Of a stretch of DNA of 64,000 nucleotides, positions 26,146 through 44,806 are shown piece by piece. Below the pieces are notes generated by a model. It made no database searches. It saw only the letters and a list, made by a program, of their open reading frames with translations, and was not told where the DNA came from. The position numbers were made by a program, and so were the translations under genes. Source of the DNA: Candidatus Poribacteria bacterium (lineage in GTDB: Bacteria > Poribacteria > WGA-4E > PCPOR2b); the NCBI GenBank assembly GCA_965218095.1, contig OZ244587.1, positions 3,392,001-3,456,000 on the forward strand, read 5' to 3'. How positions within the stretch are numbered: the first letter of the stretch is position 1; every line of letters starts with the position of its first letter.

Positions 26146-26151
26146 GCGTTC

Positions 26152-26187
26152 AAGAAACCGAGTTTTTTCGGAAAAACTCGGTTTCTT
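26152..26187. repeat. REP-like palindrome AAGAAACCGAGTTTT-n-AAAACTCGGTTTCT (copy 1)
   Basis: Perfect 16-bp arms; same element at 30174 and 30815. Confidence 0.9.
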
Positions 26188-26216
26188 CATACACATCAGC
26201 CAAGCGAGGTGACAAC

Positions 26217-26969
26217 ATGGCAAACGCTATTCGGCTTTATGAACATGGCGTGCGCGTATTTGCAGGACGACTGTATAACCACGATTACCTCTGGTTCTCA
26301 TCCAACGAAATCAGCAAAGTCTCAACAACCCAACCCATCCTGCACAACTACGCACTCTGTTATGCAATTTCGCAACGCTCCTACGGTGTCTATCTCGGTA
26401 CAACACCAAAATATGTTGAAGATCCGGATGGCGAATTCAATGCGATGCCGCTCTACGCAACGCCCGCCCACGCTGACTCCGAGCACGTATCGCGCACGAC
26501 TATCACCTTCAATGCCGTTGATTCACGCACATTGACAACAGGTGATAGCAAATCAATGAATACACCGAATTTGGGAAAGCGAGTCTACATCAATCCGGCG
26601 TGGGAATCAACGGAGGTAGAACGTCCAGAAAAAGGCTATCAATTTTACGTTTTCACATTCGACAACTATCGCCCACCAGGGGTAACACGGCTCGGTAAGA
26701 AAGGTGCTTCAATGCGCATTCGGTGGGATGAGGTACACCAACCTGTCGCAATCCACCGTGAAGGTAAACAAAGCCCAACACACCCAATTAACCCTTTGGA
26801 TGTCAACGGACACCTCGTCAGCTATGATCCGGTGATGATTCCCCCACATCTGTTATTTCGGACAGCAACCCTCGCCGCAGATTGGTGGGTGTTCTTCAGT
26901 CCCGGCAGAGCGCGGCATACCATACACGTCCCCAAACGTGTTTTGAACCGAATCGGAGGTGTATCATGA
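26217..26969 (+). CDS. csc1: Type I-D Cas5/Csc1
   Basis: WFSSNEIS, LHNYALCYA, YATPA, RLGKK, HPINPLD; GAGGTG RBS before ATG 26217. Confidence 0.9.
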   Translation: MANAIRLYEHGVRVFAGRLYNHDYLWFSSNEISKVSTTQPILHNYALCYAISQRSYGVYLGTTPKYVEDPDGEFNAMPLYATPAHADSEHVSRTTITFNAVDSRTLTTGDSKSMNTPNLGKRVYINPAWESTEVERPEKGYQFYVFTFDNYRPPGVTRLGKKGASMRIRWDEVHQPVAIHREGKQSPTHPINPLDVNGHLVSYDPVMIPPHLLFRTATLAADWWVFFSPGRARHTIHVPKRVLNRIGGVS

Positions 26970-28993
26970 GAATACAAGGCTATTCTTACAAACAGGTTGT
27001 TGTCGAAGATGTGAAAACCCGCCTTTATCCACATCAAGCTGCCATGTACAACGAGTGGCCCAACCACACCGGATTTCTACTCGTGACAAAAACGGGAAGT
27101 GGCAAAACACGGGCGACAGCGTTACCCGTACTGAAAAATCACGAATCTGCTGTTTTCGCCTACCCGACAAACGCGCTGATTCAAGACCAATCGCGGGCGA
27201 TTCAGCAATTGATGGACGATGAATATATCGCCTACCGAGAATTGACACCGCAGAATGCAACCGACAAGTTTGGTAAAGAAGAATATCAACTTGTCCAAAT
27301 TAACGCGCAGACGCTGGTAGATTTTGCAAAGGCGTGGGGAATGGGTGAAAAGCAAAAAGGGGCTGCACTTATAAGGCTAATTCAACAGGACAAGCAAAAA
27401 ATTGTATTGATTAACCCCGACATTCTTTATCTTCTGTACTCGTTGCGCTACCGTGGCAGCCAAGAGGCTTTATCATATTTGCAAGCATACAAGACAATTG
27501 TATTTGACGAGTTTCATCTCTACAACGGCGTTGAATTAGCCCACGCGCTTTTCCTTATCTTTTTGGCACAACGTATGGGGGCGTTTCAACGAGTTGTGTT
27601 GCTCTCTGCCACTCCGAATGAAGATGTCAAAACCTATCTTGATCGACTGCTCAACCCGCTTGTCATTGATGCGGATGTAAAAGTTCCGCAGCCCGTTTGT
27701 GGCAAGCGAGCGGTCGCATATGATGTAGAGCTCAATGCTTTGCCTTTGCCCGTTACTAAGGATGTCGTCGAAACGGCACAATCGAAGATCCTTGAACTTC
27801 AGAGCGAATTATACCGACTCCAAACAGAAAACTGGGAAGCGAACAAAGCGGGAGATTATGTGCCTTGTGTTGTTATCCTCAATTCGGTCGTCAATGCCAT
27901 CGCACTGGAGGATACCCTTGTTGAAGCGGGGATATCCCGCACAGAAATCGCACCGATTCGCGGGCTTTCAGCGCGGAGTAGTCGAGACGTGAGAGGCAAA
28001 ACGCTTGTCATCGGCACAGCGGCAATCGAAGTCGGAATTGATTTCAAAACCGATTATCTGATTTTCGAGGCGGGCAATCAAGCGTCGTTCATGCAGCGAT
28101 TTGGACGGCTTGGGAGGCATAGTGCCGGACAGGCATTCCTACTCGCTGACCCGCGTGAATATCAAGCGGTCAAATCTCTTGGGGATGACATCTCCCGCGA
28201 TGATCTAGAGCAGGGCATCAAAACTATCTATCCCGGACAGGATGCGAAAGAGTGGTTTGTTGATACGCAGTGTGGTGCGTTTACGGTGCTCGCCCAAGCT
28301 GAGAACTTCCGCAGTCGAATTATCGACGATTGGCCTGCTGATGAATCAATGAAAACTGAACTTGAGGCGTGGCTAGACGCCGCTTTGACAGACTATGCAA
28401 CACATATGAATCTATCTCAGATGAAACGTGCTCGATTGAAACTTCGACGCAAGCCAACGTGGTTTGAGCATTACAAAGCGTTGGACTCATTTCGCACATC
28501 GTTACCGAGTCAGGAGGTTTGGGATGTTCGGGAAAAAGAGAACGAGCGCGATTGGTCTTACGATGCCGACGTCAAGATGTTGCTCACTCGTGCCGAGCGG
28601 TTGTGGTATAATGAAAGACATGACCGGCTCTACGTCAAAGGCTACGGAAAGTATCGCCAAGTCTGGTTTGCCAAAACCTTCGACGATGAACGTGAAGATG
28701 ACTGTTGTGGCATACTTCGCACAACTGCCGATTATTCAAGGGAAGATATGCAGTTCATGCAGGAAGGTCATTTGACATCAGTTTCGCATGTGATGGCAAA
28801 ACAGAAATACAAAGAGCGTGTTACCGGCCATGTATTTGTTCTCGCACCCATAGATTTAATCCCAAAATTGGACTGGCGACTGGCGTGGTTTAGATGCGGA
28901 TCGCGTGGGAAATACATCATTGCATTTGATGGAGACGCCCTTCTACTGAAAGAAATCTATGATCGGGTACTGAAGGAAAGAAACAGAAAATGA
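26966..28993 (+). CDS. cas3: Type I-D helicase Cas3' (no HD domain)
   Basis: TGSGKT, YPTNAL, DEFH, LSAT, IEVGIDF, QRFGRLGR; GGAGG RBS before ATG 26966. Confidence 0.93.
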   Translation: MRIQGYSYKQVVVEDVKTRLYPHQAAMYNEWPNHTGFLLVTKTGSGKTRATALPVLKNHESAVFAYPTNALIQDQSRAIQQLMDDEYIAYRELTPQNATDKFGKEEYQLVQINAQTLVDFAKAWGMGEKQKGAALIRLIQQDKQKIVLINPDILYLLYSLRYRGSQEALSYLQAYKTIVFDEFHLYNGVELAHALFLIFLAQRMGAFQRVVLLSATPNEDVKTYLDRLLNPLVIDADVKVPQPVCGKRAVAYDVELNALPLPVTKDVVETAQSKILELQSELYRLQTENWEANKAGDYVPCVVILNSVVNAIALEDTLVEAGISRTEIAPIRGLSARSSRDVRGKTLVIGTAAIEVGIDFKTDYLIFEAGNQASFMQRFGRLGRHSAGQAFLLADPREYQAVKSLGDDISRDDLEQGIKTIYPGQDAKEWFVDTQCGAFTVLAQAENFRSRIIDDWPADESMKTELEAWLDAALTDYATHMNLSQMKRARLKLRRKPTWFEHYKALDSFRTSLPSQEVWDVREKENERDWSYDADVKMLLTRAERLWYNERHDRLYVKGYGKYRQVWFAKTFDDEREDDCCGILRTTADYSREDMQFMQEGHLTSVSHVMAKQKYKERVTGHVFVLAPIDLIPKLDWRLAWFRCGSRGKYIIAFDGDALLLKEIYDRVLKERNRK

Positions 28994-29086: not shown

Positions 29087-30175
29087 ATGCAATCACTCAT
29101 CGTTGATGATTTTGGCGCATACCTCGGCAAACGCTCCGAGCGCGTCAGCGTCCGATACCGAGACAAAGAACGAGAAAAAGAAGAACACGCCCTCATGGAC
29201 CTCGACCACATCGTCATCGCCTCGCGGGGTGTCAGTATGTCCTCAGACCTCATCGAAGCGTGTACCGAGCGCGGCATCGAAATCTCGTTTCTCAGTTTCA
29301 ACGGCAAACCGTATGCGAAACTCAACAGCCCGTCACTGACAGCGACCGTAATTTCAAGACGCGAACAACTCGCCGCATATAACGATGAACGCGGCGTCGA
29401 GATTACCAAACGGTTCGCCACAGGCAAGTTACGGAATCAGATTAACCTCGTCCGCTATTTCGGCAAATACCGCAAGAAACGTGCGCCGAAGAAGTACGCG
29501 GAGCTAGTCGAGCGGCTCACAAAAATTGAGGTGATTATTGATGAACTCCAGTGCGTGGGGATGGGTGCAACCGATGCGCCGTCAATTGATGGTGCACGCG
29601 GCACGTTACTCAACCTCGAAGGACGCGCCGGCGCTCTCTATTGGGAATGCGTCCAACGGCTGCTGCCCGCCGGACGTTTCACAACCCGAAACCATCAAGG
29701 CGCGGTTGATGACGTGAACGCGCTGCTCAACTACGGCTACGGGATACTCTACTCACAGGTCTGGAGCGCACTCACGTTAGCTGGACTCGAACCATTTGCG
29801 GGGTTCCTACACGTTGACCGCCCCGGCAAACCATCGTTGGTGTTGGATTTTATCGAGGAGTTCCGTCAGCCGATCGTTGACCGGGTTGTGTTTGCAATGA
29901 TCAACAAGAGATTCAAGGTCGAGTGGGAAGCGCCGGATAGCGACGCCGCCAAAGCCGCGCGCCAGTCCGCAACGACCGAAATTCCGACACAGCGCCGTTT
30001 AAGCAGAGACACCCGACGCGCATTTGCCGACCGGCTACTGGCACGCCTTCAGGAGACCGAGCGATTCGAGCGAAAGGAACAGAAACTCTGCAACATTATC
30101 CAACTCCAAGCCCGCCATCTGGCGATGTTCCTGCGCCGTGAACGGGATTATCAGTCGTTGGTTGCCCGCTGGTAA
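29087..30175 (+). CDS. cas1: CRISPR integrase Cas1
   Basis: EGRAG..YW, NALLNYGYGIL, GFLH, LDFIEEFRQPIVDR. Confidence 0.96.
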   Translation: MQSLIVDDFGAYLGKRSERVSVRYRDKEREKEEHALMDLDHIVIASRGVSMSSDLIEACTERGIEISFLSFNGKPYAKLNSPSLTATVISRREQLAAYNDERGVEITKRFATGKLRNQINLVRYFGKYRKKRAPKKYAELVERLTKIEVIIDELQCVGMGATDAPSIDGARGTLLNLEGRAGALYWECVQRLLPAGRFTTRNHQGAVDDVNALLNYGYGILYSQVWSALTLAGLEPFAGFLHVDRPGKPSLVLDFIEEFRQPIVDRVVFAMINKRFKVEWEAPDSDAAKAARQSATTEIPTQRRLSRDTRRAFADRLLARLQETERFERKEQKLCNIIQLQARHLAMFLRRERDYQSLVARW

Positions 30176-30208
30176 GAAACCGAGTTTTTTCCTCAAAACT
30201 CGGTTTCT
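30174..30208. repeat. REP-like palindrome (copy 2), left flank of the RAYT gene
   Basis: AGAAACCGAGTTTT...AAAACTCGGTTTCT. Confidence 0.9.
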
Positions 30209-30221
30209 GGAGGCGTCACAG

Positions 30222-30788
30222 ATGCGAAACATCCAATTTAGAGCCGGATATTATTACCATTTATACAACCGTGGTGTGGATCGTCAACCCATCTTCTTCG
30301 ATGAGGAAAACTGGGGATACTTTATAAAACGTTTGCGTCATTACTGCATACCTGATCTGATTGAAATTGTCGCTTATTGTCTCATGCCGAATCATTACCA
30401 CATTCTCGCTTATCTGAAAGATGACAACCTGAGCACGAAAATCATGCAACCATTCACCGTGTCCTACACCAAAGCTGTGAATCGGCAACAAGACCGCGTG
30501 GGCCCAGTTTTCCAAGGCACCTTTAAGGCAAAGTTAGTAGACAAAAACGAGTATCTTCTACATCTTTCACGCTATCTTCACCTGAATCCAGTATTGGCGG
30601 GGATAGTTGGTAATCCTGCAAGCTGGACATTTTCTAGCTATCAGGACTACGTTGGCTTGCGTAACGGAACTTTATCCAAACCTGATATCGTACTGTCCCA
30701 GTTTCCTTCGCGCCAGGCTTATGCTAAATTTGTCCGTGCGTATTCTGAGACCGACAGGGAGTTAATTGAGCATTTGATGTTAGATTAG
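30222..30788 (+). CDS. REP-associated tyrosine transposase (RAYT; Y1 HUH)
   Basis: YYHLYNRG...IF, AYCLMPNHYH (HUH), YLHLNPV, W..SSY; GGAGG RBS. Confidence 0.92.
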   Translation: MRNIQFRAGYYYHLYNRGVDRQPIFFDEENWGYFIKRLRHYCIPDLIEIVAYCLMPNHYHILAYLKDDNLSTKIMQPFTVSYTKAVNRQQDRVGPVFQGTFKAKLVDKNEYLLHLSRYLHLNPVLAGIVGNPASWTFSSYQDYVGLRNGTLSKPDIVLSQFPSRQAYAKFVRAYSETDRELIEHLMLD

Positions 30789-30814
30789 AAAACAAAGAAA
30801 CCGGATAGGAGGCA

Positions 30815-30849
30815 AAGAAACCGAGTTTTCAAGAAAAAACTCGGTTTCT
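30815..30849. repeat. REP-like palindrome (copy 3), right flank of the RAYT gene
   Basis: AGAAACCGAGTTTT...AAAACTCGGTTTCT. Confidence 0.9.
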
Positions 30850-30856
30850 ACATACT

Positions 30857-31108
30857 ATGCACACCTACGTCATCTACGACATTGTCAAAGACCGCATCCG
30901 CAAAAAAATCGCGGATGTCTGCCTCGATTACGGCTTAAAACGCATCCAATACAGCGCGTTCCTAGGCGACATCAATACCACACGACAGCGGGCGTTAGAG
31001 GAGAAACTCACGGAACAACTCGGCAGAGCGGAAGGGAAGATCGAAATCCTCAGCGTGTGCGCGAAGGACTTCGACAAGCGAACCGTTATTGAGGAGGCTG
31101 GAGAATGA
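30857..31108 (+). CDS. cas2: Cas2
   Basis: VIYDI, YGLKRIQYSAF. Confidence 0.95.
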   Translation: MHTYVIYDIVKDRIRKKIADVCLDYGLKRIQYSAFLGDINTTRQRALEEKLTEQLGRAEGKIEILSVCAKDFDKRTVIEEAGE

Positions 31109-31677
31109 ACATACGAGTCAGTGACATCAAGCAGTACTTCTACTGCCCAAGGGTGGTCTACCACACCTACTTGACACCCGTCCACCGGCCCGTCACGCAT
31201 CCGATGCAACTGGGCGCCGTCGAACACGAGGTGCTCAGTGTCTTGGAGCGGCGTCGAACCCTCTCCCGCTATGGGCTTGACGCTGGAAGCCGTAAATTCC
31301 ATCTCTCACTGCACGCCGAGTCTCTCGGATTGACAGGCGTACTCGACCTGCTGATTGAGACGGAAGATGGCGCGTTTCCGGTCGAGTTTAAGTCCACGAC
31401 TCAACGGCTGAACCTGAACGCGAAATACCAATTGACGGCGTATGCGATGCTGGTGGAGGCGTGTCTCGGTCATTCAGTTTCTCAAGGGTTTATCTATCGG
31501 ATTCCGACACAGCGCATCACAGCGGTTCCGATTTCAGAGACACTTCGTCGGAAGACCCACCACGCCATCGAGCAGATACGGGGTATGCTTTCAGACGAGC
31601 GGCTGCCATCGCCGACGCCACAGCGAGGAAAATGTGTCGAGTGCGAATTTCGTCGATTCTGTGGCGATGTGTTGTGA
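31105..31677 (+). CDS. cas4: Cas4 exonuclease
   Basis: YCPR, GVLD...PVEFK, QLTAYA, C-terminal CVECEFRRFC (4Fe-4S ligands). Confidence 0.95.
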   Translation: MNIRVSDIKQYFYCPRVVYHTYLTPVHRPVTHPMQLGAVEHEVLSVLERRRTLSRYGLDAGSRKFHLSLHAESLGLTGVLDLLIETEDGAFPVEFKSTTQRLNLNAKYQLTAYAMLVEACLGHSVSQGFIYRIPTQRITAVPISETLRRKTHHAIEQIRGMLSDERLPSPTPQRGKCVECEFRRFCGDVL

Positions 31678-32072: not shown

Positions 32073-33438
32073 GTTTCAACCTTTGCCCCGATGAAAAGGG
32101 GACTGAAAGTGACGAGATTCAGATCCCTCTGTAGTAGCACCTGAGTTTCAACCTTTGCCCCGATGAAAAGGGGACTGAAAGTATTCGTCAGTTACTGTAC
32201 AGGTTATCGTAACTGTTGTGTTTCAACCTTTGCCCCGATGAAAAGGGGACTGAAAGTTATCTATATCCGCATCTGTCTCGTCATCAATATCGCGTTTCAA
32301 CCTTTGCCCCGATGAAAAGGGGACTGAAAGGCAAATTGGGCGATGCTCGGTCTATTTCTGCGAGAGTTTCAACCTTTGCCCCGATGAAAAGGGGACTGAA
32401 AGACTCCAATGTGATAGCGTGGACGGCACTGGCTATTCACGTTTCAACCTTTGCCCCGATGAAAAGGGGACTGAAAGTGCCGGTCCAGTGCGTTGTTGCA
32501 GGTCCTGTTCTGCGTTTCAACCTTTGCCCCGATGAAAAGGGGACTGAAAGTCAAGTTGATAACCTTTTCCCTGACTGCTTGTAGCGATGTTTCAACCTTT
32601 GCCCCGATGAAAAGGGGACTGAAAGTGCACTCAAAGAATACATCGTGTTCTCAGATGTCGGTGTGTTTCAACCTTTGCCCCGATGAAAAGGGGACTGAAA
32701 GTGCTCGGCGACTTCGCAAATAGCAACGCCGAACAACCGTTTCAACCTTTGCCCCGATGAAAAGGGGACTGAAAGGGTAGTCTCAGTTTCACTTAATGTC
32801 GCTCCTTTGGGTTTCAACCTTTGCCCCGATGAAAAGGGGACTGAAAGAACGTGATTCAGGTGGCTCTCTTAGAGTTGTTTCCGCCGTTTCAACCTTTGCC
32901 CCGATGAAAAGGGGACTGAAAGCAAGTATCCTATACTTGGTGCTGCAGGACTTGGAGCAGTTTCAACCTTTGCCCCGATGAAAAGGGGACTGAAAGTCTG
33001 AATTGACTGCACGGACCTGGAAATCATATTCGGGTTTCAACCTTTGCCCCGATGAAAAGGGGACTGAAAGGTCATTAAAAATATTACGGAATAGCGCACT
33101 CTCAAGTTTCAACCTTTGCCCCGATGAAAAGGGGACTGAAAGACCGATCCTACATGGCCCGATCTCCCGTCTGTCCCTGAGTTTCAACCTTTGCCCCGAT
33201 GAAAAGGGGACTGAAAGCACTAATTCACCTCAACAGCGTGGTCGTTATATCGGTGGTTTCAACCTTTGCCCCGATGAAAAGGGGACTGAAAGGATAAGCA
33301 CCCGTCACTAATATTGGGGCAGGGGAGGTTTCAACCTTTGCCCCGATGAAAAGGGGACTGAAAGGAAGCCCCTGCGCCACTTCCGACCGCCGTTTTGACG
33401 AGTTTCAACCTTTGCCCCGATGAAAAGGGGACTGAAAG

Positions 33439-36400
33439 GCTTCAGGACATCATCAATAATCTGTTTCCGGGGTCGTTTCAACCTTTGCCCCGATGAAAAG
33501 GGGACTGAAAGCGCGATAGTGTGAAAGAAATGTTTGAGAATGTGGGTTTGTTTCAACCTTTGCCCCGATGAAAAGGGGACTGAAAGTTTCAGGAAGTTGA
33601 CACGGTGGCAGCAGTTCTGGGTTTCAACCTTTGCCCCGATGAAAAGGGGACTGAAAGGAATCAGTGATGGACGCGGTGGTGTCATTTCTGTATCGTTTCA
33701 ACCTTTGCCCCGATGAAAAGGGGACTGAAAGAGCCCGTATCTTGGACGAGCAGGTGTTCGGTATCAGTTTCAACCTTTGCCCCGATGAAAAGGGGACTGA
33801 AAGGACCGACTTTGTGCATCTCCCGATAGGCGGAGAGTCAAGTTTCAACCTTTGCCCCGATGAAAAGGGGACTGAAAGTTCACATACGCGCCGAGAGGGA
33901 TTCGCTTCTCGACTGCGTTTCAACCTTTGCCCCGATGAAAAGGGGACTGAAAGGATACCAACATTCGATCACTTCATAGGTGTCTTGGCGGGTTTCAACC
34001 TTTGCCCCGATGAAAAGGGGACTGAAAGACATCGTCAAGCCATTCTATATACTTCTCATCAGAATGTTTCAACCTTTGCCCCGATGAAAAGGGGACTGAA
34101 AGACTCGCATCTATCGGGAGAACGGGCAGACGCTTTAGTTTCAACCTTTGCCCCGATGAAAAGGGGACTGAAAGATAAAGTCTTGCACGAGCACGGAGGC
34201 GCGACCAAGTTTCAACCTTTGCCCCGATGAAAAGGGGACTGAAAGTGACCACTTTCGTCGCGGCGGCAGGAAAGCCGTCTGGGTTTCAACCTTTGCCCCG
34301 ATGAAAAGGGGACTGAAAGATATCAGGATTGAGAAGCCGATACCATGCATGACCCTGTTTCAACCTTTGCCCCGATGAAAAGGGGACTGAAAGAGTGTTC
34401 GGACGGTCGATGCCTCGACCATTTTTGTTAGTTTCAACCTTTGCCCCGATGAAAAGGGGACTGAAAGGGTCCCCATCATGCAACTCATTGTGATGGATCT
34501 GAAGTGTTTCAACCTTTGCCCCGATGAAAAGGGGACTGAAAGCGCTTAGGGCGATACTTGTCGGTGCGTACCCGAAATAAGTTTCAACCTTTGCCCCGAT
34601 GAAAAGGGGACTGAAAGGCGACATCCAGTTCTGGGGTAACGATACCCGCGGCTGTTTCAACCTTTGCCCCGATGAAAAGGGGACTGAAAGTGCAGAAGAT
34701 TTGGAAGGGGAGTTTAGGATTATATTGTTTCAACCTTTGCCCCGATGAAAAGGGGACTGAAAGTGAAGCTGAAACTTGGCAAATGCGAAATGTTTTGATG
34801 TTTCAACCTTTGCCCCGATGAAAAGGGGACTGAAAGCTCTCAAGTATCAACGCACTATTCGACCGTGCCCCGTTTCAACCTTTGCCCCGATGAAAAGGGG
34901 ACTGAAAGTTACCCAGTGGCTTGGTAATGTCTCAAGGCCTGTTGCGTTTCAACCTTTGCCCCGATGAAAAGGGGACTGAAAGTTTGCTTTTAACATGTTT
35001 AGGAATGCCGCTGCGTGGTGTTTCAACCTTTGCCCCGATGAAAAGGGGACTGAAAGGACACAAAGAAGAATATGTGAAAGTGTATCCTTCGGGTAAGTTT
35101 CAACCTTTGCCCCGATGAAAAGGGGACTGAAAGCAGAGCCGGTAGCCGTTCAGCCGAATAATCGTAGTTTCAACCTTTGCCCCGATGAAAAGGGGACTGA
35201 AAGGCTTCAGGACATCATCAATAATCTGTTTCCGGGGTCGTTTCAACCTTTGCCCCGATGAAAAGGGGACTGAAAGCGCGATAGTGTGAAAGAAATGTTT
35301 GAGAATGTGGGTTTGTTTCAACCTTTGCCCCGATGAAAAGGGGACTGAAAGTTTCAGGAAGTTGACACGGTGGCAGCAGTTCTGGGTTTCAACCTTTGCC
35401 CCGATGAAAAGGGGACTGAAAGGAATCAGTGATGGACGCGGTGGTGTCATTTCTGTATCGTTTCAACCTTTGCCCCGATGAAAAGGGGACTGAAAGAGCC
35501 CGTATCTTGGACGAGCAGGTGTTCGGTATCAGTTTCAACCTTTGCCCCGATGAAAAGGGGACTGAAAGGACCGACTTTGTGCATCTCCCGATAGGCGGAG
35601 AGTCAAGTTTCAACCTTTGCCCCGATGAAAAGGGGACTGAAAGTTCACATACGCGCCGAGAGGGATTCGCTTCTCGACTGCGTTTCAACCTTTGCCCCGA
35701 TGAAAAGGGGACTGAAAGGATACCAACATTCGATCACTTCATAGGTGTCTTGGCGGGTTTCAACCTTTGCCCCGATGAAAAGGGGACTGAAAGACATCGT
35801 CAAGCCATTCTATATACTTCTCATCAGAATGTTTCAACCTTTGCCCCGATGAAAAGGGGACTGAAAGACTCGCATCTATCGGGAGAACGGGCAGACGCTT
35901 TAGTTTCAACCTTTGCCCCGATGAAAAGGGGACTGAAAGATAAAGTCTTGCACGAGCACGGAGGCGCGACCAAGTTTCAACCTTTGCCCCGATGAAAAGG
36001 GGACTGAAAGTGACCACTTTCGTCGCGGCGGCAGGAAAGCCGTCTGGGTTTCAACCTTTGCCCCGATGAAAAGGGGACTGAAAGATATCAGGATTGAGAA
36101 GCCGATACCATGCATGACCCTGTTTCAACCTTTGCCCCGATGAAAAGGGGACTGAAAGAGTGTTCGGACGGTCGATGCCTCGACCATTTTTGTTAGTTTC
36201 AACCTTTGCCCCGATGAAAAGGGGACTGAAAGGGTCCCCATCATGCAACTCATTGTGATGGATCTGAAGTGTTTCAACCTTTGCCCCGATGAAAAGGGGA
36301 CTGAAAGCGCTTAGGGCGATACTTGTCGGTGCGTACCCGAAATAAGTTTCAACCTTTGCCCCGATGAAAAGGGGACTGAAAGGCGACATCCAGTTCTGGG

Positions 36401-36931
36401 GTAACGATACCCGCGGCTGTTTCAACCTTTGCCCCGATGAAAAGGGGACTGAAAGTGCAGAAGATTTGGAAGGGGAGTTTAGGATTATATTGTTTCAACC
36501 TTTGCCCCGATGAAAAGGGGACTGAAAGTGAAGCTGAAACTTGGCAAATGCGAAATGTTTTGATGTTTCAACCTTTGCCCCGATGAAAAGGGGACTGAAA
36601 GCTCTCAAGTATCAACGCACTATTCGACCGTGCCCCGTTTCAACCTTTGCCCCGATGAAAAGGGGACTGAAAGTTACCCAGTGGCTTGGTAATGTCTCAA
36701 GGCCTGTTGCGTTTCAACCTTTGCCCCGATGAAAAGGGGACTGAAAGTTTGCTTTTAACATGTTTAGGAATGCCGCTGCGTGGTGTTTCAACCTTTGCCC
36801 CGATGAAAAGGGGACTGAAAGGACACAAAGAAGAATATGTGAAAGTGTATCCTTCGGGTAAGTTTCAACCTTTGCCCCGATGAAAAGGGGACTGAAAGCA
36901 GAGCCGGTAGCCGTTCAGCCGAATAATCGTA
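33439..36931 (+). repeat. Tandem duplication of a 24-spacer block (period 1765 bp)
   Basis: Spacers in 33439-35166 recur in the same order in 35204-36931. Confidence 0.95.
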
Positions 36932-39900
36932 GTTTCAACCTTTGCCCCGATGAAAAGGGGACTGAAAGGCAGAGAGCTTCCGACCTTTGCCACGATTCCA
37001 GGTAGGTTTCAACCTTTGCCCCGATGAAAAGGGGACTGAAAGCTAGGCGAATGCCGGTCTTTTCGGCTATCAGGTTGATGTTTCAACCTTTGCCCCGATG
37101 AAAAGGGGACTGAAAGATATTGACACCACCCCCCCGATTATCCCAATAATCCCAGTTTCAACCTTTGCCCCGATGAAAAGGGGACTGAAAGTTCACCACA
37201 ACAGCGTGGTCGGTACAATTCTTCTAATGGTTTCAACCTTTGCCCCGATGAAAAGGGGACTGAAAGATGACCTCCATGGTTTGGATTAGCTCCGGCAACA
37301 GCGGTTTCAACCTTTGCCCCGATGAAAAGGGGACTGAAAGAGCCTTGCTTTTCAGGCTGCCGTCGCCATCTGGCCTGTGTTTCAACCTTTGCCCCGATGA
37401 AAAGGGGACTGAAAGTCGTCAAATTGCCAACCACATCGGTCTGCTTCGTAGCCGTTTCAACCTTTGCCCCGATGAAAAGGGGACTGAAAGAACCAGTCGT
37501 AGGATTCCCCCAGAACTTGAGATTGCCAGTTTCAACCTTTGCCCCGATGAAAAGGGGACTGAAAGACTCACGGGACTTCTGGAGATGTTTTCTGGTGTAT
37601 GCTGTTTCAACCTTTGCCCCGATGAAAAGGGGACTGAAAGACTCACGGGACTTCTGGAGATGTTTTCTGGTGTATGCTGTTTCAACCTTTGCCCCGATGA
37701 AAAGGGGACTGAAAGTGGCAATTACAATGAGATTTATGGTAATCGCTTTGGTATGTTTCAACCTTTGCCCCGATGAAAAGGGGACTGAAAGATTGATGTT
37801 GCCTAATAATCTCCCTCCCTGGTCCGTAGTTTCAACCTTTGCCCCGATGAAAAGGGGACTGAAAGTCAAAGTAAGAGCCAAGGTCCTGGACGCTTTGAGC
37901 AAGTTTCAACCTTTGCCCCGATGAAAAGGGGACTGAAAGTAGCGTCATGGAGAATTGAGAACATCCGCCGCTCCGAGTTTCAACCTTTGCCCCGATGAAA
38001 AGGGGACTGAAAGAGACGGAACGGGCATCCTGCCGGAAGGACTTCAAGCCGTTTCAACCTTTGCCCCGATGAAAAGGGGACTGAAAGGGTGACGGCGTGG
38101 AAGTAAACGCTCATATCCGGTGGTAGTTTCAACCTTTGCCCCGATGAAAAGGGGACTGAAAGCAGAAAGAATTAGTTGTACAGCATCAATAATCATAGTG
38201 GTTTCAACCTTTGCCCCGATGAAAAGGGGACTGAAAGGCTGTTGTGGCTTGGACTGTGCTATCTACTGCAGTGTTTCAACCTTTGCCCCGATGAAAAGGG
38301 GACTGAAAGCAGCCGACCAAATACCGCTTCCTTTGGTAATTAGACGCGTTTCAACCTTTGCCCCGATGAAAAGGGGACTGAAATCGAAGAACAAGGCACA
38401 CTTTGCGAAATGGTATACAGAGTTTCAACCTTTGCCCCGATGAAAAGGGGACTGAAAGCCCGACGACCGTAACCCTGTCCTTATCCCACCCTTCCGTTTC
38501 AACCTTTGCCCCGATGAAAAGGGGACTGAAATCGAAGAACAAGGCACACTTTGCGAAATGGTATACAGAGTTTCAACCTTTGCCCCGACGAAAAGGGGAC
38601 TGAAATACGAGTAGTCCGTTGGCCTTCGTCGATTTCGCTGCGTGGTTTCAACCTTTGCCCCGACGAAAAGGGGACTGAAATACTCGTCGATCAGCGCCCG
38701 GCACGTCGCGGTCCCGGCGTTTCAACCTTTGCCCCGACGAAAAGGGGACTGAAATTGTTGTAATGCCATGTCTCATTGAGAAATGGTAAACCTGTTTCAA
38801 CCTTTGCCCCGACGAAAAGGGGACTGAAAGCATCATCAATCGGATCAATACTAAACAGCGTTCCGTTGTTTCAACCCTTGCCCCGACGAAAAGGGGACTG
38901 AAAGTAATTCTTTGATTGGAGATTCATAGATGGCTAGCGTTGTTTCAACCCTTGCCCCGACGAAAAGGGGACTGAAAGCCACAATAAGTGGGTGGCTCGC
39001 CTCTGTGGCATGATAGTTTCAACCCTTGCCCCGATGAAAAGGGGACTGAAAGTGGTCGGGAAAGTGCTGCAGCGTACTGAGTCCGACATGGTTTCAACCC
39101 TTGCCCCGATGAAAAGGGGACTGAAATGCTCACCTGCGGCTTTGGTCTTCATCACCTGCTCACGTTTCAACCTTTGCCCCGACGAAAAGGGGACTGAAAT
39201 AGACATCTATTTGGCGACTATCATTCTCTTCAATCCAAGTTTCAACCTTTGCCCCGACGAAAAGGGGACTGAAATACTTCTTGAATTGCGTGATCGGGCT
39301 TTTGAGGCTTCAGGTTTCAACCTTTGCCCCGACGAAAAGGGGACTGAAATAAAAGGAGTCGAACATGACCCACTATCAATTAACTCAGTTTCAACCTTTG
39401 CCCCGACGAAAAGGGGACTGAAATTCACGCCAATACTCCCCAACTGGTGGGCAATCACCTGGTTTCAACCTTTGCCCCGACGAAAAGGGGACTGAAATAC
39501 TTTCCCACTTTCGCTTCCCTCCTTCTCTCCTTTAGTTTCAACCTTTGCCCCGACGAAAAGGGGACTGAAATAAGACGAACAAATGCCTACCGCTCGGCTC
39601 ACGTGCGGTTTCAACCTTTGCCCCGACGAAAAGGGGACTGAAATTGAACTCATGGTATTTTGACCGATTCTTTCCTCCGCTGTTTCAACCTTTGCCCCGA
39701 CGAAAAGGGGACTGAAATCTCCGAATGCAATGCTGTCACCCATGCAGCCAAGCAGTTTCAACCTTTGCCCCGACGAAAAGGGGACTGAAATCATGTAGAA
39801 GCCAAGGGGATAATCTATTGCTACAGGTTTCAACCTTTGCCCCGACGAAAAGGGGACTGAAATTGCACTCCAAAAAGGAATGCCATCTCGGACATCGCTG

Positions 39901-40792
39901 TTTCAACCTTTGCCCCGACGAAAAGGGGACTGAAATCTCCGAATGCAATGCTGTCACCCATGCAGCCAAGCAGTTTCAACCTTTGCCCCGACGAAAAGGG
40001 GACTGAAATGCGTAATATTGTCATGACCAGATAGGCATTCGTCTAGTTTCAACCTTTGCCCCGACGAAAAGGGGACTGAAATTTTCCCGTCAAGTTCCGA
40101 CCAATGCCGATGGTCACTGTTTCAACCTTTGCCCCGACGAAAAGGGGACTGAAATGGGAAATGGGGGAACGTGGCGTGGAGTGCGGTTATAATGCACTCT
40201 GCATGTTTCAACCTTTGCCCCGACGAAAAGGGGACTGAAAGCCTCACACTTTCTCACCTGCGCCTTCCTCCTATAGTGGTTTCAACCTTTGCCCCGACGA
40301 AAAGGGGACTGAAAGTATCTAACATGCTTGACTTGCAACCTAGTAGCAGAATTGTTTCAACCCTTGCCCCGATGAAAAGGGGACTGAAAGACGATTTTAG
40401 CGTTCCCTACCGGGACACAACAAATGGTTTCAACCCTTGCCCCGATGAAAAGGGGACTGAAAGCATCTTTGATTTGTTCATTATGTTCATAAGATTTGGG
40501 TTTCAACCCTTGCCCCGACGAAAAGGGGACTGAAAGTTGCAACGACGAGGCAAAAGAGCGAATAGAGGGGCTAAAAAGGGCAAAATTTCATGACGCACGC
40601 GGGGCAGCCCGGCGTAGTGCTAGCAAGGCGTTAGAAGCGCTTGAGATCATATTTGAAGCCTTGCCCCTCACTCTCGCCAAGGCCACACCCAAAACGCTTG
40701 AGGATTTCAAGAAGATCCCAAGCCGAGACATCCGCCGTCTCCTCGACAGGTTTCAATTCGTGCCCCGACGAAAAGGGGACTGAAAGTAGTTT

Positions 40793-40818
40793 TGCTATAC
40801 TATATGATCGAAAGGAGG
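40793..40818 (+). promoter_or_regulatory. Extended -10 (TGcTATACT) and AGGAGG RBS inside the giant spacer
   Basis: TG at 40793, TATACT at 40796-40801, AGGAGG at 40813-40818, 8 nt before ATG 40827. Confidence 0.65.
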
Positions 40819-40826
40819 TTTTCATC

Positions 40827-42686
40827 ATGTCAAGTTTCCGTACCATTTCACGGCTACTCATTTGTCTGTTTCTCCTGTGCAGCTCTGCCATCGCACAAAT
40901 CGTCGAAATTCCCGACCCTAACCTCGCGGCGGCGATACGGGATAACCTCGGCTTAAACCCAAACGAACCAATACAGCAAGAAGATTTGTTGCGCCTCACC
41001 AGTCTTGAAGCAATAGACAGAGGCATCAAAGACCTCACAGGTCTCGAGTATATGACAAATCTTAGAGGATTTAATCTCTACAAAAACGAAATCGTTGACA
41101 TAAGCCCACTGGCGAGTCTAACCAAACTCACATGGTTTAACCTCTTGAGCAACCAGATAGTTGATCTAACTCCCCTCCGTAAACTCGTAAGACTAAGAAC
41201 CATCATACTTAGCAACAACCGAATTAAAGATGTTCATCCACTCGGATCTCTCACAAATCTAGTTTATCTAAATCTACGCCACAATCAGATTACAGATTTC
41301 ACACCACTTGCCAATCTAGTAAACCTTGAAAGACTTAGAATCGAGTACAATCCCAGCACCGATATCAGTTTTGCCAATGGTCTAAACCTAATCGAGTTTA
41401 TTTATCACGAAATCTGTGACCTGCCGAGACTTCCAATTCAAGAACGCATAGATAATCGAAGTTTCCCATCGATCTTTCAAGCATGGAATGGACTGATAGA
41501 TGATTCATTAACAGAAGACGATCGAACAGCACTCCATGATATCTATTGGGGACCATATTTTAGGCTCGATTGGCGAGAAGGCTTCCAGCTAGTCGGCGAC
41601 TTAAAAGCCTCCCGGGCGAGCCGTGACCTATTGCTCACCAAAAATCCCAACATGCTGATCGTTACTCATATTTTCATGCGAGGCGGCTCCATAACGAATT
41701 TCTTCCCCGAAAACTTTCCCTACTGGATTAGAGATGAAAACGGCAACCCTATCGTCGGAGGACCGAATTCATTTCTCCTGGATTTCACACACCCCGGCAT
41801 GCAAGATATAATTGTTCAACAAGCCATCGCACTCTCAAGATGTGGGTTGTTTGATGGTATCCTCATCGACTGGTGGCGTGAGGATGTAAACGTTTTACGC
41901 GATCATCGAAGCTTTGAGGCAGAGCAACAAGCGCGAGATATAATTATTCAAGCCGTCCGCGCTGCGGTTGGCCCTGATTTTTTAATCATAGTCAACAGCA
42001 ATCGGAGTAAAATTCCACGCACGGGGCCTGGCAATATCAACGGCATCTTCATGGAAACCCATCGCGACCACGACGACGGCTACACACATGAGTCCCTTAT
42101 GCGGATTGAAAGCACCCTGCTCTGGGCAGAAGAAAACCTCAGGGCGCCACAGCTTAACTGTTTAGAGAACACAAGCGTTAAATATGGCGCACCAGACTCC
42201 CCCGAGAACCAACAATGGATGCGAGTCTTCACCACCCTGACCCTCACCCACTCCGATGGGTATGTGCTCTCAGTGTTTGGCGACTTGCACGCGCATATTT
42301 GGTATGACTTCTGGGGCGCCGACCTCGGACGCCCCATTGGACCAAAGGGTCAACCCTACCAAAACCACGAGGGAGTCTTTATCCGAGAGTTCACCAACGG
42401 CTGGGCGGTCTACAACCGCAGCAGCAAACCCCAAGAAATCACCCTGCCGAGCCCCGCCACAGGTGTCGAAAGCCAACACACCGGCGCCACCCACCAGCTT
42501 CCTGACCTCGACGGCGAAATCTACCTCAAATCCCCCGTATCGCCATACGACCTGAACAAAGATGGCATGGTGAATATCTTCGATTTAATCATCGTCGCCA
42601 ATCGGTTCGGCGCCCCCACTGGCGATGTCAACGGAGATGGGACCACCGACATCTTCGACCTCGTTCTCGTTAGCCAGAATTTCTAA
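40827..42686 (+). CDS. Secreted internalin-like LRR protein with a putative glycoside-hydrolase-like domain and dockerin-like C-terminus, embedded between CRISPR repeats
   Basis: Signal peptide; IPDPNL cap; 22-aa LRRs (L..L.L..NQI.DL.PL); FDGILIDWW; DLNKDGMVNIFDL / DVNGDGTTDIFDL. Confidence 0.88.
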   Translation: MSSFRTISRLLICLFLLCSSAIAQIVEIPDPNLAAAIRDNLGLNPNEPIQQEDLLRLTSLEAIDRGIKDLTGLEYMTNLRGFNLYKNEIVDISPLASLTKLTWFNLLSNQIVDLTPLRKLVRLRTIILSNNRIKDVHPLGSLTNLVYLNLRHNQITDFTPLANLVNLERLRIEYNPSTDISFANGLNLIEFIYHEICDLPRLPIQERIDNRSFPSIFQAWNGLIDDSLTEDDRTALHDIYWGPYFRLDWREGFQLVGDLKASRASRDLLLTKNPNMLIVTHIFMRGGSITNFFPENFPYWIRDENGNPIVGGPNSFLLDFTHPGMQDIIVQQAIALSRCGLFDGILIDWWREDVNVLRDHRSFEAEQQARDIIIQAVRAAVGPDFLIIVNSNRSKIPRTGPGNINGIFMETHRDHDDGYTHESLMRIESTLLWAEENLRAPQLNCLENTSVKYGAPDSPENQQWMRVFTTLTLTHSDGYVLSVFGDLHAHIWYDFWGADLGRPIGPKGQPYQNHEGVFIREFTNGWAVYNRSSKPQEITLPSPATGVESQHTGATHQLPDLDGEIYLKSPVSPYDLNKDGMVNIFDLIIVANRFGAPTGDVNGDGTTDIFDLVLVSQNF

Positions 42687-42748
42687 ATAGGGTTTGTTTC
42701 AATCCTTGCCCCGACGAAAAGGGGACTGAAAGCAACCAAGGAGGTTTT

Positions 42749-42934
42749 ATGACATTACGAATTTGGGAAGCAATTATTGGCGTGCTTTTCTACATCGCCG
42801 CTGGCATTATTGTCGGGGGCATAATCCTATTGATTTTCTATGTTAGACATGAATTAGGACTTTCTGATTCATTCTGGCCCGCCGAACTCGAAGATGTATT
42901 CGAGAAAATTCGAGATAAGAGGAAGGAGAATTAA
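42749..42934 (+). CDS. Small single-pass membrane protein (61 aa) embedded between CRISPR repeats
   Basis: AAGGAGG RBS; about 24-residue hydrophobic stretch and charged C-terminus. Confidence 0.7.
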   Translation: MTLRIWEAIIGVLFYIAAGIIVGGIILLIFYVRHELGLSDSFWPAELEDVFEKIRDKRKEN

Positions 42935-43082
42935 GATGAACAAGACTTTTATCGACGACCATTTAGTTTCAACCTTTGCCCCGACGAAAAGGGGACTGAA
43001 AGCCGGCGACGCCTACACCGTTGGATTCGGATTCGCGCCGTTTCAATCCTTGCCCCGATGAAAAGGGGACTGAAAGAGCACA

Positions 43083-43120
43083 AAACTAGGCGACCGCCCC
43101 GAAGGACAATCGCCTAGTTT
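43083..43120 (+). terminator. Terminator-like hairpin formed by a spacer and the start of the next repeat
   Basis: AAACTAGGCGA...TCGCCTAGTTT 11-bp inverted repeat. Confidence 0.5.
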
Positions 43121-43352
43121 CAATCCTTATCCCGACGAAAAGGGGACTGAAAGAGCACTTTCCCACTTTCACCCCCTCTCACCTGCTTCTTGTTTCAATC
43201 CTTGCCCCGACGAAAAGGAGACTGAAAGAGCACAAAAAAAGGTGACCGCCCCGAAGGACAATCGCCTAGTTTCAATCCGTTCAAAGCATTACGTCGTCAA
43301 ATGGAGCCCTGTCGCGTTGGGCAAAGGAAGGCACAGCATGAAGGTGTATTTG

Positions 43353-43540: not shown

Positions 43541-44806
43541 TTAGTCTCTCACCCTGATTATATCCGCACCAATCCCCGCAAGTTTCTTTTCGATCAATTC
43601 ATATCCGCGATCGATATGGTAGACGCGGGAAACCACCGTTTCTCCTTCAGCCGCTATGCCAGCAAGAACCAAAACCGCCCCGGCACGCAGATCCGATGCC
43701 ATAACAGGGGCGCCGCTCAGTTTAGGCGCACCGCGTACCACCGCCCGGTTTCCTTCGACGCGAATATCCGCACCCATGCGATTGAGTTCGCTGGCATGCA
43801 TGAAACGATCTGAGTAGATGCCTTCTGCGATAACGCTGACACCTGGCATAATACTGAGAAGTCCCATCATCTGCGCTTGCATATCGGTTGGAAAGCCCGG
43901 GTATATATCGGTGATCACATTGACAGCTTGGAGGCACCGTGGCGTCGTCACGCGAACCCCATTATCCGCCCAATCCAGTTGAACGCCTGCCTTAAGTAGT
44001 TTTTCGCACACGGCGCCGAGGTGCTCCGGTAGCGCATGCTTGACAAAAACATTCCCCTTCGTGATGGCGCCCGCAACCATGAATGTTCCCGCCTCGATAC
44101 GGTCTGGAATGACAGTATGTTCCGTGCCGCGAAGTCGCTTGACGCCATGTATCGTCAAGGTGGAAGTCCCGGCCCTTTTGACCTTTGCTCCCATTGCATT
44201 GAGGAAATTCGCTAGGTCAGCGACCTCCGGCTCACAGGCAGCGCCACGGATAATCGTCGTGCCTTCCGCCAGCGTTGCCGCCATCATGACGTTTGCCGTT
44301 GCACCGACGCTTGAACCGTGTGGTCCTCTCAGATACATCTCCGCACCGACCAGCCGATCCGCTCGCGCAACGATATAGCCGCCGTCAATCTCAATCTCTG
44401 CACCGAGTTGCTCCAACCCTTTCAGGTGCAGATCTATCGGACGTGGACCGATTGCACAACCGCCAGGGAAAGAGACCTTTGCCATGCCTAAACGCGCAGC
44501 GAGCGGCCCCAGCACATAGATCGACGCCCGCATTTTCCGGACGAGATCGTAAGGGGCTTCATAAGCAATCCGGTTTCCCGGTTCGATATAGAGGCTTGAA
44601 TTTTTGAACTTTGCCGTTGCCCCTAGCACCTCAAGCACCGCGCACAGGGTATCAATATCCCTCAGATTTGGAACATTGTGGATGACACTTGCGCTGTCTG
44701 CCAAAATCGCGGCGGCGACAGCGATGGGAAGCGTCGCATTTTTAGAACCGCTGACTGAAATTGTGCCTTCGAGTCGTTTGCCGCCGTTGATGATTAACTT
44801 ATCCAT
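43541..44806 (-). CDS. murA: UDP-N-acetylglucosamine 1-carboxyvinyltransferase
   Basis: GSKNA, MRAS, PGGCAIGPRPIDLH, SVGAT, PGFPTDMQAQ, HIDRGYE. Confidence 0.97.
   Translation of the reverse strand: MDKLIINGGKRLEGTISVSGSKNATLPIAVAAAILADSASVIHNVPNLRDIDTLCAVLEVLGATAKFKNSSLYIEPGNRIAYEAPYDLVRKMRASIYVLGPLAARLGMAKVSFPGGCAIGPRPIDLHLKGLEQLGAEIEIDGGYIVARADRLVGAEMYLRGPHGSSVGATANVMMAATLAEGTTIIRGAACEPEVADLANFLNAMGAKVKRAGTSTLTIHGVKRLRGTEHTVIPDRIEAGTFMVAGAITKGNVFVKHALPEHLGAVCEKLLKAGVQLDWADNGVRVTTPRCLQAVNVITDIYPGFPTDMQAQMMGLLSIMPGVSVIAEGIYSDRFMHASELNRMGADIRVEGNRAVVRGAPKLSGAPVMASDLRAGAVLVLAGIAAEGETVVSRVYHIDRGYELIEKKLAGIGADIIRVRD

Follow-up and report, generated by a model that had tools for sequence, protein, structure and literature searches.

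The window analyzed here, a 64,000-nt stretch of the genome of a sponge symbiont, a Candidatus Poribacteria bacterium (contig OZ244587.1, positions 3,392,001 to 3,456,000 of the forward strand), contains a type I-D CRISPR-Cas locus on the plus strand, with the array 3' of the cas genes. Near the trailer end of this array, its old end, three consecutive oversized inserts of 213, 1909 and 233 bp lie between repeats 115 and 118, each of them fitting exactly between complete repeats. One insert carries a whole gene, another an internal gene fragment, and the third a small open reading frame (ORF) together with the severed start of a second one. Inserts of the same anatomy but with unrelated cargo recur in other genomes, always in the last units of an array or in small orphan arrays, and mostly in the sense direction. 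We tentatively favor the explanation that they are oversized spacers, left when the adaptation integrase on rare occasions inserted long unprocessed DNA precisely at a repeat, and selectively retained near the trailer.

The genome containing the window (G000) is a metagenome-assembled genome (MAG) of one 6.35-Mb contig, C1. Labels of the form G0xx denote family genomes and L0xx the loci or contigs compared, while P0001 and P0002 are metagenomic proteins.

Inserts, flanking repeats and junctions

The array and the features of its oversized part are the following, with positions counted within the window.

32073 to 43228, plus strand: CRISPR array of 121 repeats of 37 nt, with the leader end at 32073 and the degenerate trailer end at 43228
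40500 to 40536, plus strand: repeat 115, two mismatches against the leader-end consensus
40537 to 40749, plus strand: insert 1, internal fragment of a phage-like gene in sense, 70% amino acid identity over the whole insert to residues ~68–140 of P0002
40750 to 40786, plus strand: repeat 116, five mismatches, at positions 8–12 and 19
40787 to 42695, plus strand: insert 2, a single complete gene preceded by 40 nt and followed by 9 nt
40827 to 42686, plus strand: gene of insert 2, for a 619-aa LRR/GHL15/dockerin-like protein (Pfam LRR_4 4.6e-22, GHL15 4.2e-10, Dockerin_1 1.8e-6)
42696 to 42732, plus strand: repeat 117, three mismatches
42733 to 42965, plus strand: insert 3, a small complete ORF and a cut-off ORF start
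42749 to 42934, plus strand: 61-aa hydrophobic orphan ORF behind AAGGAGG
42936 to 42965, plus strand: first 10 codons of another ORF behind GGAAGGAG, its own ribosome-binding site, severed by repeat 118
42966 to 43002, plus strand: repeat 118, one mismatch
43269 to 43278, plus strand: truncated terminal repeat of 10 nt, GTTTCAATCC

The positions of the four repeats and the lengths of the three inserts agree exactly with a first-pass annotation of the window, which had described a CRISPR array carrying whole genes as spacers. Its count of one to four substitutions per repeat has to be corrected to two, five, three and one. All four repeats retain the CCCC/GGGG stem and the ACTGAAAG end, in line with its statement of an intact hairpin and GAAAG end. 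They are moreover full length and keep the 8-nt handle, and their changes are confined to positions 8–12 and 19; the two terminal repeats of the array, unlike these four, have lost stem pairs. After repeat 118 the array returns to ordinary spacers, as annotated, with lengths of 37, 40 and 38 nt.

All six junctions in G000 lie at the exact ends of full 37-nt repeats, and no leader-like or spacer-like remnant is present at any of them. The coding sequence reaches the final base of inserts 1 and 3. Pfam searches found no transposase domains in the three inserts, nor do the inserts have terminal inverted repeats, which bears out the earlier statement that the repeats are their only boundaries. Insertion of a transposon or insertion sequence (IS) was therefore rejected for G000; among all the cases compared, only a gap in G022 fits it.

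Exact short-read contigs of study P1 (runs X1 and X2) and of study P2 (run X4) span positions 40508–40979, 42392–42995, 40510–40830 and 42707–42994. These junction-bridging contigs from two studies have zero mismatches, although one of the runs may be the source of the assembly itself. In addition P0001, a gene call of another assembly, runs from the repeat into insert 1, and upstream of it that assembly has one spacer more and one fewer. Together the contigs and the P0001 reading indicate that the structure is real and common to more than one population. Some joints appeared to skip the inserts (40390 to 42696, 40468 to 43040 and others), but they were not accepted as insert-free variants because their sides are only 21–41 letters long, mostly under the 31 needed, and run through repeats.

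A further observation concerns the boundary between inserts 2 and 3. Insert 2 ends in GTTT and insert 3 starts with CAACC, and these 4 and 5 nt read in succession give the opening 9 nt of the repeat. If the two inserts were joined directly (window 42687–42750), the result would be a natural intergenic region of 25 nt that contains a ribosome-binding site. The 9-nt spelling may be chance or a trace of the arrival of repeat 117. The main array (at 43269) and one orphan mini-array also end in truncated repeat starts of 9–10 nt.

Cargo of the inserts

Insert 1 has one plus-strand frame open from end to end. Its homology to P0002, a metagenomic protein of 222 aa, spans the insert from the first to the last codon and is internal to the P0002 gene. 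The language-model (Atlas) clusters nearest to P0002 are viral, with small-terminase families close behind, which gives a lead only. The source of P0002 was not found in IMG/VR, among the JGI metagenome contigs or in 28 family genomes, and the protein matches neither a Pfam nor a PHROG family and is not similar to the terminase-like cargo of G019.

The gene of insert 2 is preceded by a ribosome-binding site and encodes a protein with a hydrophobic N-terminus, by eye a putative signal peptide, and a dockerin-like C-terminus. Its closest relative in the family is a paralog in G000 itself (C1:2780397–2782263) with 80% nucleotide identity, others reaching at most 75%. Homology to the paralog runs only from the ribosome-binding site to the stop codon, with a TGCTATACT motif (40793–40801 in the window) shared further upstream. 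In the paralog the reading frame is broken by a 1-nt frameshift and by a stop at codon 103, whereas the gene in the array is intact; between the two, dS is 0.57 and dN/dS 0.27. Upstream of the paralog (C1:2780300–2780400), an insertion of ~95 nt separates the shared TGCTATACT motif from the ribosome-binding site; it is made up of a hairpin unit, GTTGCTYTGAATC..CCCGAT..ATCGGG, present twice.

Insert 3 begins 5 nt before the AAGGAGG. No relatives of its 61-aa ORF were found in 28 family genomes or among 5.8 billion proteins; a single metagenome match, L095, was rejected as spurious, being a membrane segment of a 246-aa protein. Neither insert 1 nor insert 3 has another copy in the G000 genome.

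The description of the inserts as whole genes thus stands for insert 2 and for the complete ORF of insert 3 (42749–42934), and fails for insert 1, an internal piece of a 222-aa gene, and for the second ORF of insert 3, of which only the severed 10 codons are present.

Recurrence in related genomes

The repeat family is present in 13 of the 28 other family genomes (Candidatus Poribacteria), from which 16 loci were fetched. Gaps of at least 367 bp between repeats were found in seven of the 13 (G015, G007, G023, G024, G019, G002 and G022). A scan with the exact 23-nt repeat core, with one genome per species, detected 43 loci, all but five of them from Poribacteria, and added the cases L054 (665 and 179 bp), L072 (716 bp), L079 (1277 bp) and the Clostridia contig L067 (501 and 1587 bp). 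Insert sizes across all the cases range from 0.2 to 2.2 kb. Consecutive long inserts occur in G000 (three) and in G019, L054 and L067 (two each).

The cargos of different genomes are mutually non-homologous, a repetitive extragenic palindromic (REP) hairpin of the host aside, and the capture events were therefore independent. The cargo thus varies between genomes; the first-pass annotation had proposed to look for variation between strains. One cargo piece of G015 has 95.8% DNA identity to the 3' part of the WYL gene in its own cas locus and the downstream promoter region; this fragment begins within ~6 nt of the repeat end, the first 6 nt being too ambiguous in the alignment to show a protospacer-adjacent motif. 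G015 holds also two paralogous family-less ORFs of 234 and 243 aa with hydrophobic, Cys-bearing N-termini, by eye putative lipoprotein signals. Other cargos are an endonuclease/exonuclease/phosphatase-family gene in G007, a 175-aa ORF with a hydrophobic N-terminus, lipoprotein-like by eye, in G023, a double Cro/C1-type helix-turn-helix (HTH) protein in G024, a small-terminase-like gene in G019 (phrog_2538, 5.6e-15), and in L067 a 501-bp piece with a partial rve transposase domain between two identical repeats. Gene fragments, of the WYL gene and of an IS3 transposase, are thus placed between repeats of relatives in the manner of insert 1, and several further ORFs have no family.

Two cases are less clean. 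In G015 one junction is a 5'-truncated repeat, which separates two cargo pieces. The 2121-bp gap of G022 is a pile of IS with two DDE elements (DDE_3 and DDE_Tnp_1), with ~35 nt of ordinary sequence before the IS. The gaps of L045 and L048 were dropped as degenerate arrays, and the 81-bp gaps of G028 hold broken repeats.

Orphan repeat units lie outside the array in G000 (C1:3614381, 3615544, 3272368 and 2803245) and also in relatives, where some flank genes far from cas genes (G007 and L054). An empty-site comparison of the orphan locus of G007 with G004–G006 found synteny only as far as the upstream gene, where it stops. One orphan mini-array (G000:C1:3614381–3615662; L022:6196–7718) begins with a degenerate repeat, which is followed by an antisense gene of ~1.1 kb, a second repeat, 38 nt and finally a 9-nt repeat start. 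The 50-nt element before it is 90% identical to the sequence before the repeat–gene–repeat locus of G007, a different genus, with unrelated flanking genes, and may be a conserved leader or the promoter of a CRISPR RNA (crRNA)-like RNA. The solitary repeats G000:C1:3272368–3272404 and 2803245–2803340 have compensatory stem changes (GCCGC...GCGGAC). One of the two adjoins an IS-like ORF and an AT-rich island, and G027 has a single copy of the repeat with this stem variant.

Position, orientation and framing

All the inserts lie within the last six units of an array or in orphan mini-arrays. In the long arrays they follow repeats 115–117 of 121, 55 of 59, 52 and 54 of 56, 24 of 27, 22 and 23 of 24, 18 of 20, and 8 of 10. 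The remaining cases are in mini-arrays of two to seven repeats, two of them among ordinary metabolic genes.

Orientation was counted for cargos with an ORF of at least 140 aa or with family or homology support, altogether 13 inserts from nine genomes. Cargos with short ORFs or ORFs on two strands were left out (G000 insert 3, G022 367 bp, L054 179 bp, L079, G002a and L067 1587 bp), as were the gaps of L045 and L048, the 81-bp gaps of G028 and a 95-bp gap of G007. Twelve of the 13 cargos are in sense, the only antisense one being the IS pile of G022, and when the two transposase-derived cargos are removed all 11 are in sense (two-sided binomial ~0.003 and ~0.001, respectively, the genomes being related but the cargos not). 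The uncounted smaller cargos are mostly sense-leaning, and all three inserts of G000 are in the sense of the array, as the annotation had claimed.

When pieces of 1909 bp were drawn at random from G000, only four of 3000 held a complete ORF of at least 1860 nt. Among random pieces of 730–1007 bp, ~11–12% held ORFs as long as those in the relatives; this null is too strict for phage-like DNA, with its short genes. The biases in position and orientation are strong.

The type I-D locus

The cas genes and the other genes of the locus precede the array on the same strand.

19331 to 20314, plus strand: cas6 (Pfam CRISPR_Cas6, 2.5e-17)
20504 to 21475, plus strand: WYL-WCX regulator (Pfam WYL 2.4e-21, WCX 2.9e-23)
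21802 to 24582, plus strand: cas10d, a weak match (TIGR03174, 33.7 bits, under the 60-bit cut-off)
25210 to 26145, plus strand: cas7d/csc2 (TIGR03157, 97.3 bits, above cut-off)
26142 to 26969, plus strand: cas5d/csc1 (TIGR03159, 92.1 bits, above cut-off)
26882 to 28993, plus strand: cas3', type I-D helicase (TIGR03158, 165.3 bits)
29087 to 30175, plus strand: cas1 (TIGR00287, 226.8 bits)
30222 to 30788, plus strand: REP-associated Y1 transposase (RAYT) in the cas1–cas2 interval (NF047646 4.1e-19, 68.9 bits, under the 80-bit cut-off; Pfam Y1_Tnp)
30857 to 31108, plus strand: cas2 (Pfam CRISPR_Cas2, 9.5e-16)
31105 to 31677, plus strand: cas4 (TIGR00372, 123.4 bits)

A leader of ~400 bp precedes the array. 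The 86 repeats identical to the consensus GTTTCAACCTTTGCCCCGATGAAAAGGGGACTGAAAG are those nearest to the cas genes, while the repeats near 43 kb are degenerate. Besides the three inserts the array has 117 spacers, which are 33–40 nt long with a single exception of 49 nt. Both its repeats and spacers and the adjacent cas genes place the array among those of type I-D, the cas10d match staying under its cut-off. Rfam gave sub-threshold matches only, to CRISPR-DR32 and DR10 on the plus strand, with the CCCC/GGGG stem predicted and ACTGAAAG retained. Transcription was assigned to the plus strand and the trailer to 43 kb because the repeat ends in ACTGAAAG, the repeats are identical near the cas genes and degenerate near 43 kb, the cas genes are located upstream in the same orientation, and the sub-threshold Rfam matches are on the plus strand. 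Since cas1, cas2 and cas4 are intact and the 86 leader-side repeats identical, the system seems to have been recently active.

Spacers 19–42 are exactly duplicated as spacers 43–66, a tandem block of 24 units (window 33365–36860) produced either by unequal recombination or by assembly duplication. Further identical spacers are 75 and 76, 86 and 88, and 104 and 107, so that 93 of the 120 inter-repeat units are unique and 27 are exact duplicates. No protospacers for the G000 spacers were found in G000 or in the fetched loci of relatives, and the spacer ends show no motif from which a protospacer-adjacent motif (PAM) could be read.

The last and third-last "spacers" (43229–43268 and 43077–43122) hold 40-nt copies, 94% identical, of one strong hairpin. 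On the minus strand it reads as a terminator of 19 pairs and a T run, directed at the convergent murA gene (43541–44806). The copies seem to be non-spacer flank sequence duplicated along with the repeats.

The RAYT gene is single-copy and flanked on both sides by REP hairpins, GAAACCGAGTTTT...AAAACTCGGTTTC (window 30174–30852). Orthologs with 89–91% identity occupy the same place in five of the nine type I-D loci of relatives and are absent at L021, L024, L027 and L031. A link between RAYT and the inserts was rejected: there are inserts both with it (G000 and G023) and without it (G015, G022 and G024), and the REP hairpin is unlike the CRISPR repeat. A REP hairpin of the RAYT type is also present inside the cargo of G023 and G015.

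In the cas locus of G015 (L093, ~1990–2010 reverse) a motif resembling the repeat hairpin, CGCGATGAAAAGCGGAC, is present just upstream of a gene whose translation looks cas6-like by eye. It sits downstream of the WYL gene and of the conserved promoter-like stretch which is also copied into the G015 array. The motif may serve Cas6 as a binding site in the leader of cas6.

Origin of the inserts

The anatomy of the units, their precise junctions, their recurrence with varied cargo and their biases in position and orientation are direct observations. For their origin we infer, tentatively, that the type I-D Cas1-Cas2, with Cas4, would integrate long unprocessed DNA at a repeat, bypassing the length ruler and duplicating the repeat. 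The sources would differ, from a phage-like gene fragment to a host-lineage gene copy and a piece with an orphan gene. Such events would be rare. Only those near the trailer would survive, no downstream crRNAs being lost there, and mainly those with cargo along the transcription of the array. Intact sense genes, the LRR/GHL15/dockerin gene among them, would share the transcript of the pre-crRNA or be transcribed from a start inside it, and Cas6 probably excises them at the intact flanking repeats.

The junctions are what argues most directly for integration. Full repeat ends are joined to breakpoints in the middle of genes in insert 1, at the end of insert 3, in the WYL fragment of G015 and in the rve fragment of L067, and homologous recombination cannot create such joints. 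Had an element inserted at random into a spacer, remnants of that spacer should be left, as appears to be so at the IS pile of G022. If the units were separate arrays with intervening genes, each downstream repeat should be preceded by a leader, and here the coding sequence abuts the repeat. The Cas1-Cas2 integrase carries out just the reaction required, with cuts at both borders of the repeat and joining to any DNA end. The cargo spectrum, with phage-like genes, Cro/C1 HTH, family-less ORFs, IS and self DNA of the cas locus, resembles the sampling of adaptation, and the gene fragments between repeats look like arbitrary DNA pieces instead of a dedicated cassette format. Consecutive long inserts fit a transient loss of length control. 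The lack of any other mobility machinery, the seemingly recent activity of the system and the independence of the events support integration as well.

Several points weigh against this explanation. We know of no adaptation study with spacers of hundreds of bases. Aberrant spacer lengths deviate by a few nucleotides only in the portion available of one report (PMC5059440). Protospacers, from which a PAM would be read, were not found, and the spacer ends are motif-less. If integration is leader-proximal, it has to be assumed that the events are all old or that giant spacers have been purged elsewhere. The model does not predict the sense bias (12 of 13) or the tight framing of insert 2; these, the intactness of the LRR gene and the trailer position all need added selection. 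The 5'-truncated repeat of G015 marks an unclean event. The flanking repeats of G000 differ from each other at two to three positions as a patchwork of variants, which suits inter-array recombination at least as well. The operon-like join of inserts 2 and 3, with the repeat start that it spells, hints that the two were once contiguous and that the repeat came later.

Recombination at repeats is the first rival, which we regard as rather unlikely. In it the cargo would come, by homologous or short-homology recombination, from repeat-bearing DNA, such as other arrays or their remnants, solitary units of the chromosome or of mobile elements, or circles excised from arrays, or else a spacer–repeat–spacer unit would be replaced by gene conversion with the DNA lying between the protospacers of two neighboring spacers on one target. 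Repeat-mediated rearrangement is abundant in the array (27 exact duplicates among 120 units, including the block of 24), and the second assembly differs by one spacer more and one fewer beside insert 1. In the trailer third, the variants of the repeat are arranged as a patchwork instead of a ladder, orphan units exist elsewhere in G000 and its relatives, and in G015 a truncated repeat stands between two cargo pieces. Recombination nevertheless requires pre-flanked cargo or two suited spacers, and it leaves the origin of the repeat-to-mid-gene junctions unexplained. Two patterns of the repeat core found zero viral contigs in IMG/VR, a result by which phage-borne repeats were also rejected as the source. 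The G000 spacers do not match the inserts above chance, their matches to the fetched loci of relatives are at most 18–22 nt long, and no spacer is common to the arrays of relatives. Three consecutive spacer-pair conversions would moreover require six suitably placed spacers.

Ordinary decay appears to us quite unlikely. Here the trailer would be a graveyard that accumulates unrelated insertions unopposed, and the exact boundaries and the sense bias would be partly chance and partly bias of ORF calling. The restriction of the inserts to the last six units or to small orphan arrays would follow readily, the 2121-bp gap of G022 is plainly an IS pile, the gaps of L045 and L048 belong to degenerate arrays, those of G028 contain broken repeats, and host REP hairpins lie within the cargo of G023 and G015. 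Against decay stand the six exact junctions of G000 without remnants, with coding sequence up to the very end of inserts 1 and 3, and the single repeats between single cargo units, three in succession. The sense orientation of 12 of the 13 confident cargos (~0.003) does not fit either, nor does an 1860-nt ORF that is intact (dS 0.57, dN/dS 0.27) while its sole close paralog is broken.

A dedicated cassette platform analogous to integrons, with the repeats as recombination and processing sites, genes in one orientation behind the array promoter and monocistronic mRNAs released by Cas6, is very doubtful. It would account for the sense orientation of the confident cargos, for the framing of insert 2 to one gene (four of 3000 random pieces), and for the start of insert 3 at 5 nt before a ribosome-binding site, which leaves no room for a promoter. 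The difference of cargo among genomes would suit it as well, as would the preservation of the Cas6 hairpin and handle in the flanking repeats, with stem pairs lost from the two terminal ones. It does not accommodate the units that are gene fragments (insert 1, G015 WYL and L067 rve), there is no integrase-type recombinase beside the array, and RAYT recognizes a different hairpin and is missing at L021, L024, L027 and L031, three of which have inserts.

Misassembly of the MAG through repeats that collapsed or joined unrelated contigs, toward which the 24-spacer tandem duplication might point, is hardly credible and largely refuted, since exact short-read contigs of two studies span repeat–insert–repeat–insert, the independent assembly of P0001 encodes the junction of the repeat with insert 1, and the same architecture is present in many other genomes.

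Comparison with known systems

Like canonical type I-D spacers, the inserts fit exactly between full repeats with no other boundaries, have intact cas1, cas2 and cas4 nearby, and seem to draw on phage, IS and self sources. They differ in escaping the length ruler (213–1909 bp against 33–49 bp), in carrying whole genes, in their sense bias and in their confinement to the trailer.

In casposons, a casposase of the Cas1 family integrates kilobase-sized DNA with target-site duplication. The inserts would be analogous in that long DNA would be integrated by an enzyme of the Cas1 type, with duplication of a short target, which in this case is the repeat. They differ in having no terminal inverted repeats, casposase or polB, and they are not self-mobilizing.

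Integrons consist of intI and attI followed by cassettes that are separated by attC, mostly promoterless and in the same direction behind one promoter region. The inserts resemble these as a row of mostly single, largely promoterless genes in the same direction, with hairpin-forming separators and a cargo that varies among genomes. A complete ORF, as in integron cassettes, is present in insert 2 and in part of insert 3, while insert 1 and several inserts of relatives are fragments. No integron integrase (TIGR02249) was found in the window; the contig holds sub-threshold degraded fragments only, at 0.86–2.75 Mb and more than 600 kb away. These matches include a stop-ridden, pseudogene-like one (C1:1536854–1537808) and short partial ones (2745024–2745251 and 1055430–1055824). 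With no intI near the array and 37-nt CRISPR repeats instead of attC as boundaries, an integron was rejected, and the term "integron-like" used in the annotation is not upheld in the sense of family membership.

Arrays interrupted by IS are represented by G022 with its two DDE elements, the only case with antisense cargo; the G000 inserts differ from it in lacking transposase, inverted repeats and any spacer remnant.

CRISPR repeats beside ordinary genes have been described in other contexts. Solitary repeat units with crRNA-like regulators (CreTA, CRISIS) occur by ordinary genes near CRISPR-cas (10.1101/2024.12.27.630466), and the Racr repeats of phages are CRISPR repeats beside genes (PMC10651486). 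The present genomes likewise have orphan units, and the difference is that the genes here are placed within the array, from full repeat to full repeat, with no complementary spacer-like sequence and, in IMG/VR, no viral contig with the repeat. Regulation of the CreTA or crRNA-like kind, in which a spacer-like sequence beside a PAM partly complements the promoter of the regulated gene, was rejected: the best full-length match of a spacer to the cargo or its upstream region is 61%, and shuffles reach 67%. No seed match of a spacer falls in the cargo, a single one falling in another spacer.

According to the part consulted of PMC10212523, the handles left by type I-D Cas6d are 8 nt at the 5' end and 29 nt at the 3' end, and GTN serves as the PAM. 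By their stem and handle, the flanking repeats would support cutting of the Cas6d type. In the literature searched, which was without most subscription journals, no description of repeat-bounded genes inside arrays was found.

Significance

The feature is real, reproducible and recurrent, and on present evidence a variant of the content of CRISPR arrays rather than a new kind of system. Short-spacer array finders will in either case split such arrays and miss the genes within them. The biases toward sense orientation and the trailer, repeated across independent events, demand an explanation.

If recombination made the units, CRISPR arrays would be a route for the entry and persistence of genes in genomes. 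If the integrase made them, a natural Cas1-Cas2 would insert kilobase DNA site-specifically, which would bear on the casposon origin of CRISPR and on DNA-writing tools. A wider reading, which we consider unlikely, is that the Poribacteria arrays of type I-D, along with at least one array of this repeat family in Clostridia, serve as a platform for gene capture and expression in addition to immune memory: Cas1-Cas2(-Cas4) would write pieces of 0.2–2 kb and Cas6 would free handle-bearing mRNAs. Such a release of cargo as mRNAs, which the annotation had also put forward, is plausible. Complete sense genes would then be kept because the array promoter transcribes them, and one such gene would be that of insert 2, a member of the large family of LRR/GHL15/dockerin surface proteins of the symbiont, its sole close paralog having since decayed.

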